Shown here piece after piece: positions 37,511 to 63,955 of a stretch of 64,000 nt of DNA. Below the pieces are notes generated by a model. It was not told the DNA's origin. It saw only the letters and a list, made by a program, of their open reading frames with translations, and made no database searches. A program made the translations under genes and the position numbers. Positions within the stretch are counted from its first letter, which is position 1; each line of letters begins with the position of its first letter. The stretch spans positions 64,108,001 to 64,172,000 of the forward strand of contig JBNRSN020000024.1 in NCBI GenBank assembly GCA_051313645.2, read 5' to 3'. The stretch comes from Centroscyllium fabricii (Eukaryota).

Positions 37511-38131
37511 TTTAATATTTAAAATATGACATTCAATTAGTAGCCAGGCCATCAAATTAGTAATTTTTACCACAGTTGGGGATTCATCTGGTGCATATTA
37601 TCCAATCGGTTTTGAAAATTTCAACTAACTTCTCCAGAGTTACAGATTGGAAATGTAGATTTGCTCGTGAAATCTCTTCATAGTAATAAAGGCTTACGTG
37701 CATTTTCTGTAATCTAGAAACACCTTCCCGGGCAGCTGTTTTTATATCATATACATTTTAGCATTTTGATTAGCTGAATTTAAAAAATAAAATTCCAAGG
37801 AATAGTTTTTATTGATACGGTGGAGGTTGTGAAGGCAGTTCCCAGTTGAACTTTGTTGCTGATAACAATGAGAGTTCGTGTGTACATGCGAATATTGTTC
37901 TGCCCTGGAGTAAGATGCATCTTTCTTGCCTTTTCATGGTCCTGTTATTTGTTGCTGTATTAGAATAATTGTAAATGGGGAATGTGATCTTAAAAATAAA
38001 TGGCATTGTAGAGCAACTGTTAGCTGCAGTTAACCAGGAAATATGACCTTCAATTTGAAAGCTGACTTGAATATTGTACTTATAATGTTTCTTTCCAACA
38101 AAACTATAATTATTGTATTTGTCACTTGCAG

Positions 38132-38225
38132 ACCAACAGAGCGAGAACTGACTGAAAGACTAATCAAGACTAAACTTCGGGAGATAATGATGCAGAAGGA
38201 TTTGGAGAACGTCACATCAAAAGAG
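38132..38225 (+). CDS. SSH2: Slingshot-2 exon (PTERELTERLIKTKLREIMMQKDLENVTSKE), DEK-C-like domain
   Basis: CAG acceptor, GTAGGT donor; phase 2 to 0. Confidence 0.96.
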
Positions 38226-38507
38226 GTAGGTGTATACCCTTACTGAAGAAAATTGACTGGATTCACAACAGATTCTGAATTGATATTCATTGGCTGACAT
38301 TTTTTAATACCATGCAAATAAAATGGAGAAATAACTTCAAAACCCAAATGTTTTGCATTAAGGTGACGTAACTTTAAAAAAATATATAAATAATGATTGG
38401 GATTCTTAATTTTAGAATGCATCTTTGTCCAAGATTCTTACTGACAGTGTACACTTGCTTGTGTCTGTGTAATAACCAGCTAGCCCAATTTTAACTGTTT
38501 GGAGATT

Positions 38508-38892
38508 GGGCGGCACGGTGGCACAGTGGTGAGCACTGTTGCCTTACAGCACTGGAGACCCGGGTTCAAATCCAGCCTCGGGTACTATCTGTGTGGAGTT
38601 TGCACATTCTCCCCGTGTCTGCGTGGGTTTCCTCCGGGTGCTCCGGTTTCCTCCCAGAGTCCAAAGATGTGCGGGTTAGGTTGATTGGCCATGATAAATT
38701 GACCCTTAGTGTTGGGGGGTTTGAATATGTGGGGTTACGGGGATAGGGTGAGATATGTGCTCGATAGGGATCGAGGGATATGGGGAGAGGGCAGGGACAG
38801 GGTACTGGGTTTGGATGATCAGCCATGATCTCATTGAATGGCGGAGCAGGCTCGAGGGGCCGAATGGCCTACTCCTGCTCCTAGTTTCTATG
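38508..38892 (+). mobile_element. HE1-like tRNA-derived V-SINE with CR1 tail
   Basis: A-box TGGCACAGTGG, B-box GGTTCAAATCC, V-domain TGTGTGGAGTTTGCACATTCTCCCCGTGTCTGCGTGGGTTTCCTCCGGG, 3' end shared with the CR1 at 3527. Confidence 0.92.
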
Positions 38893-39176
38893 TGTTCACT
38901 TTCACCTTCCAGTGCAGAACATATGGTTTCCATATGGTAACTCTCATTCTGAAATATGACTTCAAATAAGGGTGGTTGCTGATCTTAAATGAAAGATCGA
39001 ATGAACTGTCTTGACTTGGACTGAAAAAATCATTTTATTGGGCTTCCAAATCTGATGTTTCATTAGACTGGTTACCAGTAAAGAATTTTCTGACCCTGTG
39101 TTATTTAACTGCTGATTGGTTTTGGCCTTGTGTGAAATGCATGGATCTCAATAGCTAATTGTTGTATTCATTGCAG

Positions 39177-39305
39177 ATTCGCATAGAATTGGAGATGCAG
39201 ATGGTCTGCAACTTGAGAGAATTTAAAGAGTACATTGATAACGAGATGATTGTAATCTTGAGGCAGATGGACAACCCAACCGAGATATTTGAGCATGTCT
39301 ACCTG
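39177..39305 (+). CDS. SSH2: Slingshot-2 exon (IRIELEMQMVCNLREFKEYIDNEMIVILRQMDNPTEIFEHVYL)
   Basis: CAG acceptor, GTATGA donor; phase 0 to 0. Confidence 0.96.
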
Positions 39306-39771
39306 GTATGATCATTATACTATAATTGATCGTTGTCCTCTGTCACACCTCTGATCACTATTTCTTGTGGGTATGTGTGTGTTCGCAGAAATGAATGTTA
39401 CCTGATGGATGGTGGGGAGTTAAGGAGAGTGAAAGGGAAGGGAATCACAACCGGCCTCTCTTGTGCTAGCTTCTAAACAGCATTGGTTTTTCTACCTCCT
39501 TCATACAAATGTGATTACTGTAGTTTTGGATTCCTATTTATGACAATATTAGAAGTTTTGAGAAATTCTCCAGAGTACTTTTAAAGTTTGAAATTTCTCT
39601 GCAACCTGCTTGTTGACTAATATATCTTTTTTTTACTGCTATTATCTGCATTAAGTCTTAAGTTCCTGTAGTAAGTTTTTTTAGTAGGAAAGAACATTTC
39701 CAAAGGGTTATATTTCCCAGAGAGACCAAGTTAGAAATCTTCTCTGGTGTGAGCTGGCTTGCCTCCTCTTG

Positions 39772-40670
39772 TGGAGGTGCCGGTGTTGGACTGCGGTGGA
39801 CAAATGCAAGAAGTCACACAACACCAGGTTATAGTCCAACAGTTTTATTTTAAATCACAAGCTTTCGGACCTTCTGCCCCTTCGTCAGGTGAAAGAGAGA
39901 CTGACTTAAAGAACGCACCTATGGGAGGAAGGGAGAAATCCGATCTCTCCCACATCTCTGTCTATCTCTGCTAAGGTGAGATGTGGGAATTATCAGATTT
40001 CTCTCTTCATCACATATGTGCGTTCTTTAAGTCAGCCTCTCTTTCACCTGACGAAGGGGCAGACGCTCCGAAAGCTTGTGATTTAAAATAAAACTGTTGG
40101 ACCAGGGGTCCCCAACCTTTTTGGGACCGCGGCCCATTTTGGCCTTGTCAAGTTTTGCGGGGGGGGGGTGGGGTGCTGCCAGAATTTTTTTTGTCTGACC
40201 GGGTGGGGGGGGGGGGTGCTGCCGGAGTTTTTTTGACTGACCCGGGTGGGGGGGGGAGGGGTGCTGGCGGAGTTTTTTTGACTTGGGGGGGGGGTGCTGG
40301 CGGAGTTTTTTTCACTGACCGGGGGCAGGGTGTCTTCCGTCTGTGCTTCCTCTCTGCCCCCCCCCCAGTTCCTGACCTCTCCCATGCGATCCTCTCTTCC
40401 ACCCCCCGGTCAGCACGGATCCAGTGACGGAACTTGTCCTACGAAGCTGACGGAAAGCATAGCCCACACTGCAGGCCGCTGCTGTGCAGGCGCCGATGGG
40501 GAAACGGGTGCGCGGCTCCGATATACCGCTCGCGTGATCTGCGCATGCGCCGAGGTTCAGACCCTGCCGCAGCCTGGTAAAAATGTCCCGCGGACCGGCA
40601 CCGGGTCGCGGACCGGCGGTTGGGGACCGCTGTGTTGGACTATAACCTGGTGTTGTGTGACTTCTTGCAT
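39772..40670. mobile_element. Penelope-type inverted-terminus insertion (palindrome), later split by a hAT MITE
   Basis: 13-bp TSD TTGCCTCCTCTTG (39759-39771/40671-40683); arms 39801-39958 versus 39978-40102 plus 40641-40673. Confidence 0.8.
40103..40632. mobile_element. hAT (Charlie-like) MITE
   Basis: 8-bp TSD TGTTGGAC (40095-40102/40633-40640); TIR CAGGGGTCCCCAACC / GGTTGGGGACCGCTG. Confidence 0.93.
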
Positions 40671-40727
40671 TTGCCTCCTCTTGGCACCTTTTCCCGGAGG
40701 AGCCGAATCTATCGGGAATGTCTGGTG

Positions 40728-41170
40728 TCATAAACTTCAGCTTATCCAAAACTCTGCTGCCCGTGTCCTAACTCACACCAAGTCCCGTTCACCCATCACT
40801 CGTGTGCTTGCTGACCTACATTGGCTCCCGGTCTGGCAACGCCTCAATTTCAAAATTCTCCTCCTTGTTTTCAAATCCCTCCATGGCCTCACCCCTCCCT
40901 ATCTCTGTGCACATCCCCCCGGTTTTAATTGCTCCACCATTGCCAGCCGTACCTTCAGCTGCCTATGCCCTAAGCTCTGGAATTCCCCCTCTCAGCCTCT
41001 TGGCCTCTCTACCTCTCTCTCTCCCCTCTTTTAAGATGCTCCTCAAAACCTACCTCGTCCTGCCCTAACATCTCCTTATGTGGCTTGGTGTCAAATTTTG
41101 TTCAGTAACGCTCCTGTGAAACACCATGGGACGTTTTACTATGTTAAAGGTGCTGTATAAATGCAAGATG
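40728..41170 (+). mobile_element. L2-like LINE 3' fragment
   Basis: KLQLIQNSAARVLTHTKSRSPITRVLADLHWLPVWQRLNFKILLLVFKSLHGLTPPYL. Confidence 0.88.
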
Positions 41171-41444
41171 TTCTTCTGCCACTTTATGGTGTACCATATT
41201 GGCACACTACCACACTGTACCAACTTGGCTGGAGAGTCTTTAAGATGCAAATGTAGCTATTTTAAGCTTTTATGACCAATCTAGAACACTGTCAATTCCA
41301 GGGAAATCCCAAGATGTGCTCATCACGTACGTGATAAAAGTATTTCATTAACTGTGACGTGCTTTAGGTTGTGATAAGGTGCTGTGTGAATTATTTTTTT
41401 CTGTGTCAGCTGTCTACGATTTGTCTTTTGCATTGGCTGTGAAT

Positions 41445-41925
41445 ACGTAAGAAATAGGAGCAGGAGTCGGCCATTTGGCCCTTCGAGCCTGCTCTGCCAT
41501 GCAGTAAGATCATGGCTGATCTTCTACCTCATCTCCACTTTCCTGAACTATCCCTTGATATTCAAAAATCTATCGATCTCTGTCTTGAATATACTCGATG
41601 ACTGAGCCTCTGGGGTAGAGAATTCCAAAGATTCACCACCCTCTGAGTGAATAAATTTCTCCTCATCTCAGTCCTAATTGGTTGACCCCTTATTCTGAGA
41701 CTGTGACCCCTGGTTCTAGACTCCCCAGCCAGGGGAAACATCCTTCCAGTATCTACCCTGTCAAGCCCGGTAAGAATTTTGTATGTTTCAATTAGATCAC
41801 CTCTCGTTCTTCTAAACTCCAGAGAATATAGGCCGAGTCTAATCAATCTGTCCTCACAGAACAATTCCCCCCATCACAGGAACCAGTATTGTGAACCTTT
41901 GCTGCACTCCCTCTATGGCAAGTAT
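41445..41925 (-). mobile_element. CR1 3' fragment
   Basis: RLGLYSLEFRRTRGDLIETYKIL...FTQRVVNLWNSLP. Confidence 0.9.
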
Positions 41926-42923
41926 ATCAGGAATGCAGGAAGTTAAACGATTTCATGTAAATACATTTTTCTTTGTGACTTGACTTAACTTATCTCTGCT
42001 GTGACTTATCTTATTTTGGAGTACTTGTTTTTCAAAACTGTCCTGCCGTGGTTTCCTGCATTAAAGTTTCGCAATAATGAAGCCAGCTGCTGCCTGCTTA
42101 TGTTAAATTGCAGTCTATAAGGATAGACAATAGTCAGCTGGCCTTAAAGTCAAAGAAATGTTATTTTAGTGACGAGGCATAAGCATTACTTCAAAGAATC
42201 TCAGTAAATCCATTTTCATTTGTGACCATTTCACAACTCACGGTTGTCAGTTCATTCAGAAAATAACCTGGAACTAGTGTGTGCCCTTTTCTGCTTGCCC
42301 AGGGTTGGATGTTTTACTGTTTTATTCTTGTACTTCATTCTCCTTGACCCCCCTCCATGGTGAGTGAATGAGTAGCAGACTCCTCTGCATTCTTCAACAC
42401 CACTGTTAATTTGTGGCTTCCCATCAAGAGCCACATTTATCTCCAGTGTAGCAACAGATTGAGAGCCAGTTTTTCTTGTGCGTCATACTTTGCACTTTAG
42501 CTCTGAAAGTTAAGAAAACGACAAGACTCACATTAGTAGTCAGAACTGTTGTATTATCCTGCTTGGTATCATCTTCATGCCAGTACTATCCTGTAATATT
42601 AGCCATGATCATTAATTCAATTATTTGGGGGGGGGTTTAAAGCTGGAAGAAAACTGGAAAAGTAAGCTGGTTGTAACAGAGTAATACTGCTACAGAACTT
42701 TTAATATGCTAATCGAATCATTCAAGAATTTGACCAGGTACAAGTTTGCTGGAAGCTTAACTTTCCTATTGCTCAAATATGATTGTAGGTGCATTACCGC
42801 ACCTTGGGGGGAACTTGCTTGCATCTGTACCTGGGCTACTTCGTTTCTGTGCTCAATATCAGTAGAATCTGTTTGAATTATCCTGTTAGACCTGAATCTC
42901 AGTCAGCTTGTCTCTGTTTTCAG

Positions 42924-62480: not shown

Positions 62481-62688
62481 TTTAAGACACAAGTTGGTTG
62501 AATATTGCTGGGAAAGAAATAATTGCTGTACTTTTGTCTACTTAACAGTCATTTGTATGAAATGTTTCAGGTGTTTCAATACGATTGAGTCCTATATAAC
62601 CACATGCTGTATCTTGCCTGGAATATTTAGTTGTGGTCGAAGTACTTTTATTTAAACTATTCCTCTTGTTTGTTTTCTCTTAATGCAG

Positions 62689-63541
62689 CAAACAGAGGCA
62701 CAATAAGCTATGGCGATCGCACTCTGATAGCGACCTTTCTGACCACCGTGAGCGTATTAATAAATCTACTGTTGACTTAAACAGAAGTCACAGTACTTCC
62801 ACTACAGAAATGCCAACTGATCCACTTGCTGAGCATCTCTATCACCCCCAATTCTTGGATGACCTCGACACAATTTTACCTGGAGTCCATGAGGAAAAAA
62901 TTGAATTCAATTCTGGGATCAATGCAGAGAATGAAGTACCTTCAAAATGTAACCCCGATGACTTGCACAACAGAACCTCTTCTACAACAATGCCAGTAAC
63001 CGTGACAAAGAGTTTTGCAGGTTGCAGCTCTGATGCTTTTTCTCTCCAAGATTGCCACTCTGACAAACCAGCAGAAGCCTGGTCACATGAACTTTCTTCT
63101 TCACCTGAACATCCCATGGTGTTTACTGATTTAGAAGTAGAGGAATTGGAAAAAGATGTTGGATTAAACTTGAATGGCATTTCAGCACCATTACTTGAAA
63201 TTGCACCTCAGCTGGAAGATCATCTAGCTTCGCCGGAATTAGCTTCCCCAGTCTCACCTAATGCAGATGCTGGAATTTGCAGCTCAAGTGCTGATCGAAT
63301 TGACTTCTTCAGTGCCAGAGAAAAATTCATTGAGCTTTCACAGGAGATTGGGGCTCGAGTCCAATCGCACACAAAAACTGAGGAGTTCAGTGGTGGGAAA
63401 TACAGTGCCACAAAAGTGGCTGCACAGGAATCTTTTGACACAGAGCAGCGGATTGAGGATGGTCAGGGACAGATTCCAGTGGATAACCCGGCCCACGCAA
63501 GAGATAAATGTATGGATAATAATGATGCAAAATCTAATAAG
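62689..63541 (+). CDS. SSH2: Slingshot-2 large exon (KQRHNKLWRSHSDSDLSDH...DRIDFFSAREKFIELSQE...DAKSNK)
   Basis: CAG acceptor phase 2, open 284 codons, AAG|GTAAAA donor phase 0; conserved RSHSDSDL and DRIDFFSA motifs. Confidence 0.93.
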
Positions 63542-63820: not shown

Positions 63821-63955
63821 AGTTCTGATGAAAGGTCATCGACCTGAAACGTTAACTCTGTTTCTCTCTCCACAGATGCTGCCTGACCTGCTGAGTATGT
63901 CCAGCATTTTCTGTTTTTGTTTCAGATTTCCAGCATCTGCAGTATTTTGCCTTTG
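63821..63955 (+). repeat. Penelope-type shark repeat with intact minimal hammerhead-like motif
   Basis: AGTT-CTGATGA-A-AGGTC-ATC-GACCT-GAAA-CG-TT-AACT followed by the repeat body. Confidence 0.75.

Follow-up and report, generated by a model that had tools for sequence, protein, structure and literature searches.

The insert at 39772-40670 of the window, the whole 64,000-nucleotide stretch of Centroscyllium fabricii DNA that was analyzed, is very probably a single 5'-truncated insertion in head-to-head form that derives from an abundant autonomous Penelope-like element (PLE) and was likely produced by cutting and copying on both target strands and interrupted later by a MITE. By every feature tested, namely an RT/GIY-YIG ORF, pLTRs, a tail, and a TSD, the insertion is an EN+ PLE. 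It is real but ordinary, with a layout that has already been published, and the small additions made here, a rule for the ends of head-to-head doubles and a patch from another subfamily in the right arm, add a little. The single locus matters little, being one of thousands of dead stumps. The family sample bears on the origin of PLE inverted repeats and tails, the formation of which is called undefined in the available portions of PMC8557442.

The insert was thought earlier to sit inside a host pre-mRNA, and indeed it lies in an SSH2 intron, at 39306-42923. Twelve stretches matching SSH2 coding sequence run along the plus strand between 10418 and 63541 of the window, and the exon at 62684-63541 has 82% identity with shark SSH2. 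SSH2 coding exons were also seen at L114:811-2934. The genome of C. fabricii is 7.2 Gb in size. Both flanks of the insert carry the 13-bp TSD TTGCCTCCTCTTG (39759-39771 and 40671-40683), and the inverted arms form two pairs, one of 125 nt at 91% identity (39834-39958/39978-40102) and one of 41 nt at 100% (39801-39841/40633-40673); the TSD and the arms had both been described in the earlier note. Removal of 40103-40640 in silico, as that note proposed, leaves 361 bp that fold into a single hairpin of -260 kcal/mol. Three things had been overlooked. The left arm extends 29 nt further (39772-39800), the excised segment is a transposon in its own right, with TIRs and an 8-bp TSD, and comparison of the arms over 145 columns shows 11 differences, some of them in a block. 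The right flank, 40684-41100, is a common old repeat that matches many fetched loci at 70 to 89%. Neither an empty site nor a piece spanning the insert was among the matches listed for four contig runs (two samples from one study), and no inference is drawn from this. In the search for expression, no RNA data set was listed. The features are as follows.

39759-39771, no strand: left copy of the TSD, 13 bp, direct repeat
39772-39958, minus strand: left arm, PLE pLTR covering roughly -99 to roughly +88 with respect to the hammerhead cut; "outer" end; subfamily A type
39772-39800, minus strand: 29-nt "tail", in the left arm only; in a full-length copy it runs on into the ORF start codon
39855-39892, minus strand: minimal hammerhead motif; a single mismatch in stem II sets it apart from the family
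39956-39977, plus strand: center, where the arms join over a 3-nt overlap; the 19 nt after it belong to the right arm, whose 5' end is longer
39959-40102, plus strand: right arm, first part, PLE pLTR starting at about -121 of the cut site
39991-40012, plus strand: patch of another subfamily's haplotype within the right arm (minimal extent)
40044-40081, plus strand: minimal type I hammerhead, core intact, stem III AGCU only; predicted cut after 40077
40087-40092, plus strand: AATAAA of the pLTR, sense to SSH2, within the predicted hairpin
40103-40632, no strand: nested 530-bp hAT-like MITE with 15-bp TIRs and inner G-rich repeats of about 43 bp
40641-40670, plus strand: right arm, last part; "inner" end at +55 to +58, 3 nt common with the target
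40671-40683, no strand: right copy of the TSD, 13 bp, direct repeat
39306-42923, plus strand: host intron of SSH2 (Slingshot homolog 2), GT..AG

The nested 530-bp insert is read as a hAT-like MITE. Its TSD is the 8-bp TGTTGGAC (40095-40102 and 40633-40640), a length that we take to mark it as of the hAT type. Short TIRs together with an 8-bp TSD are present both here and in a relative at L146:1714-2088, which is 375 bp long and has its own 8-bp TSD. Because the TSD of the MITE duplicates arm sequence, the MITE inserted later than the PLE.

The Penelope-like origin proposed earlier holds, as the arms are the pLTR of an element with an RT and a GIY-YIG-type endonuclease. A 26-nt word from the arm gave 10,701 exact matches, and its control gave 0. 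Upstream of long arms lies a 3' UTR and then an ORF end that is 81% identical to a 772-amino-acid RT ORF, and the Pfam domain RVT_1 scored above its cutoff in two loci (L133 and L109). The 772-amino-acid ORF is 35% identical to P0148, which has RVT_1 and GIY-YIG, over 685 amino acids that extend across the start of GIY-YIG. A protein search yielded 18,609 first-look candidates, of which 150 were scored. Pfam did not score GIY-YIG in the family's own endonuclease, and the GIY-YIG call rests on homologues; an endonuclease piece gave no usable match in Pfam, PDB, or Atlas. The linker motif CxxxxCxxC precedes the EN motifs of the family. A Zn-finger-like linker between RT and EN is the Neptune criterion, common to Nematis, in the available text of PMC8557442, and the motif would fit a placement of this family as Neptune or Nematis. 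The full layout is seen at one locus, L131, with an inverted pLTR, a direct pLTR with the hammerhead, an ATG right after the tail, the ORF, and a 3' pLTR, and the arm flanks the ORF region on both sides there and at L143, L145, and L146. For the exact subfamily of this copy no intact master turned up, and the long ORFs belong to sister subfamilies, a point against the reading. Inside another PLE double, an LTR retrotransposon occupies L061:1661-6518; its LTRs are 99% identical, and it has an open frame of 1,337 amino acids. A literature search at the level of listed records found no publication on this shark PLE family or on patchwork PLE arms.

The family was surveyed at 79 loci of one contig, taken in position order from the first places of arm-word matches (100 first places, the last 6 of which were not fetched; L010 was also left out of the 79), and the sample is tied to the single 26-nt word. 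Adjacent head-to-head doubles with scattered centers make up 35 of the 79 loci, L073 being excluded for an internal inversion, a share that is overstated because a double can match the word through either arm. The remaining 44 are single, split by later insertions, or arranged otherwise. A TSD is present in 31 of the 35 doubles, at 11 to 14 bp in 22 of those, and the doubles with a TSD span about 170 to 1,170 bp. Across the 70 arms of the doubles, the 5' breakpoint falls at 63 distinct positions, which range between +68 and -813 when counted from the hammerhead cut. The two arms overlap at the center in 16 doubles, abut in 5, and are separated by extra bases in 14; the exact 39-nt center of this copy occurs 3 times, this copy included.

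The 3' ends cluster at two sites, about +52 to +62 (inner) and about +90 to +100 (outer). One inner and one outer end were found in 30 of the 35 doubles, with one outer-outer double and four with an intermediate end, and the 30 of 31 that follow the inner/outer rule stand against an even chance at a P value of 3e-8. The other 44 loci have 24 outer and 20 inner ends. The copy studied here has ends at about +88 and at +55 to +58, with a 3-nt overlap at the center.

The pLTR identity of the arms, the scattered 5' breakpoints, the two 3' end sites, and the TSDs, mostly of 11 to 14 bp, are established. In the mechanism that we propose, the enzyme of the element would cut the two DNA strands at positions about 13 bp from each other, and element RNA would be copied from each cut. 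Priming from the two nicks would presumably be coordinated, such that two cDNAs begin at the two start sites, stop early, and are joined at the center over the 3-nt overlap, after which the hAT-like MITE would have interrupted the insertion. The presence of one inner and one outer end in 30 of 35 doubles favors coordinated priming from both DNA strands. In vitro, the Poseidon PLE protein cleaves both strands, extends each of them, and initiates at two RNA positions on either side of the tail, and the available portions of PMC11167929 describe no preference of start site by strand. The inner/outer rule is unexplained by that work as far as those portions go, because they describe no start-site difference between strands. 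Counting against the model are the 4 of 35 doubles with an intermediate end, the 1 of 35 that is outer-outer, and the 14 of 35 centers with extra bases instead of an overlap. A more specific proposal is that one PLE particle primes two cDNAs coordinately from start sites about 35 nt apart, that the templates can be different RNAs paired via AGCU, and that this copy is such a mixed event; we put it forward tentatively, as an unlikely but specific scheme. Coordinated two-site priming, if true, would account for the inverted repeat as well as for the one-sided tail.

The second arm could instead have come from fold-back, the self-priming of a single strand, as for rotifer PLE palindromes, and self-priming on an antisense template is proposed in the available text of PMC3846280. 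The arms of a double are usually of one haplotype, as fold-back would have it. Within an insertion they differ at 1.4 of 12 diagnostic sites compared to 5.1 for random pairs (48 pairs), and in 6 of 50 pairs both arms carry variants, 12 in all, that are absent from the rest of the 155 arms; both arms therefore come mostly from one source. Some centers, moreover, are located on a small template hairpin. However, it is the inner arm that reaches further 5' in 19 doubles and the outer arm in 11, either end site is used by single-arm copies, and hundreds of unpaired bases would be left at many centers. We consider fold-back an improbable source of the second arm, and cutting and copying of both strands the preferred one.

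The present copy is an exception to the one-source pattern, since its 11 differences in 145 columns include a block at 39991-40012 of another haplotype. This haplotype of the right-arm middle has 144 near matches, the right arm upstream of the block is of the left arm's type (A), and the exact mix is common to 10 other arms, with the exact right-arm sequence being unique. The right arm had also been considered as a pure second subfamily, a reading that was dropped in view of the type A upstream part and an exact mix found in only 10 other arms. Arms of such different types might be copied from two RNAs within one particle, possibly held via the AGCU hammerhead dimer. Indeed, the two arms belong to different known haplotypes in this copy and in L043, and when arms were selected for a loop II variant, the partner lacked the variant in 9 of 10 doubles with both arms readable. 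Among 47 pairs, with junction columns dropped, differences between arms fall in 38 of 458 cells that are polymorphic and non-CpG versus 100 of 5,753 other cells, a comparison that could be inflated because polymorphic sites may be mutation hotspots. Against two RNAs, the haplotype is common to both arms in most pairs, and in at least 4 (L183, L186, L189, and L191) of the 10 relatives with exactly this mosaic, the deviating arm and its partner have variants in common on both sides of the block, so that a patch fits better than a whole second template. Two templates are thus a doubtful explanation. For the deviating block of the right arm, a short gene conversion after insertion, or else a template switch, is the likely cause; patchy arms in general may owe their pattern to any one of three processes, namely short gene conversion, template switching, or copying from two templates. 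The loop II variant, AGAC versus AGAA (L152-L179), is common in one subfamily and usually discordant between arms, and it has no link with the inner or outer end.

The earlier note had read the insert as a non-autonomous palindromic retroelement of about 360 bp that spreads as a unit, with its antisense arm as a possible ribozyme switch, and this is very hard to credit: a search with the center DNA gives palindromes of similar size with TSDs, and non-autonomous PLE derivatives are known (excerpts of PMC8557442 and bioRxiv 10.64898/2026.07.22.740005), but the matches of that search were chosen for likeness and differ in their centers, the exact center has only 3 copies versus 10,701 matches of the arm word, the 63 distinct breakpoints and the wide span of TSD-bearing doubles define no unit, and the hairpin at -260 kcal/mol outweighs the ribozyme fold at -11. 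The scattered centers and the rarity of the exact center therefore indicate truncated insertion and not a fixed 360-bp family, and the spread of centers largely refutes the unit reading. The fixed-length head-to-tail unit of a retrozyme or a fixed non-autonomous element was likewise not found.

The hammerheads are passengers of the pLTR. The plus-strand motif at 40044-40081 reads as first written (UCAC CUGACGA A GGGGC AGAC GCUCC GAAA GC UU GUGA), with a predicted cut after U40077, and its minus-strand mirror at 39855-39892 is also present, its stem II carrying a single G-G mismatch and its loop differing from that of the plus-strand motif. As a motif, the putative minimal dimer-type hammerhead was borne out. 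It is present at the same position in 278 distinct fetched copies and is therefore not due to chance; the core and both stems are kept in 176 of these. No two-sided covariation in stems I and II was found in the 278 copies, a weak test within one young family whose copies are too close. One-sided changes that keep the pair occur at stem II pair 3 (G-U in 204, A-U in 68) and stem I pair 2 (A-U in 228, G-U in 22). An Rfam scan of 38000-42500 gave 15 matches at E values up to 10, none at the gathering score and none to a hammerhead family, only sub-threshold matches to miRNA-type hairpins.

Minimal hammerheads in pLTRs show no cleavage as monomers and weak cleavage as dimers (available text of PMC4209133). 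The isolated ribozyme folds at -11 kcal/mol, and in the co-folding of two 46-nt ribozymes the AGCU dimer was not the lowest-energy form. When 39772-40670 was folded, the ribozyme paired with the antisense arm at a probability of about 1, and stems I and II formed at about 0. On the host strand the antisense arm is upstream, so it would be transcribed first and fully mask the ribozyme, which predicts a lock and no switch. The folding switch suggested earlier is thereby disfavored, and in the SSH2 pre-mRNA the ribozyme is predicted to be locked off. A second minimal hammerhead type occurs at 63821-63857 and about 580-616, both on the plus strand, with stems AGUU/AACU (I), AGGUC/GACCU (II), and ACGU (III). 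The copy near 580 is decayed, and beside the other, 63862-63906 shows a weak match to the PLE 3' UTR.

PLE stumps resemble MITEs, microRNA hairpins, and riboswitch-like RNAs, which is a warning for annotation. Two predictions that an assay in vitro or in cells could measure come from the 30 of 31 inner/outer rule and the patchy arms.

In the twin priming of L1, both target strands prime, giving an inverted part and a microhomology joint, and the arms copy different stretches. In the PLE double, in contrast, both arms copy the same stretch. The published layout of EN+ PLEs, in the available text of PMC8557442 (Fig. 2) and of PMC3846280 (Pen2a_Av), is alike in its inverted 5'-truncated copy, its one-sided 30- to 40-nt tail, a pLTR that runs into the ORF start, and a short TSD, and differs in that both shark arms are too short and no ORF is left. 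The tail of the present copy is 29 to 32 nt, and a tail at one end was found in 30 of 35 doubles. Pen2a_Av has a 31-bp tail and 8- to 10-bp TSDs, with self-priming proposed, and rotifer PLE TSDs of 8 to 10 bp compare with 13 bp at the shark copy (PMC3846280, available portions).

The metazoan PLE hammerheads in the accessible portions of PMC4209133, where the shark family is not named, are likewise type I with a short stem I, an extra base before stem II, G10.1-C11.1, and a palindromic 15.2-16.2; stem II has 5 bp in the shark and 7 to 8 bp in Schistosoma. The same portions ascribe opposite-strand hammerhead pairs 100 to 700 bp apart to probable truncated PLEs. Poseidon_Ac (PAc) resembles the shark family in having two start sites that bound the tail and in the cutting and extension of both strands, but its hammerhead overlaps the ORF start, whereas that of the shark lies about 95 nt upstream of the ATG (PMC11167929, in part). 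The shark linker CxxxxCxxC is as in Neptune and Nematis, unlike that of PAc. Non-LTR retrozymes are also non-coding and bear a PLE-related type I hammerhead, but in the available text of bioRxiv 10.64898/2026.07.22.740005 they are head-to-tail tandem units, whereas the shark insert is head-to-head with no fixed unit; because it is without a tandem unit, the shark insert is not a retrozyme.
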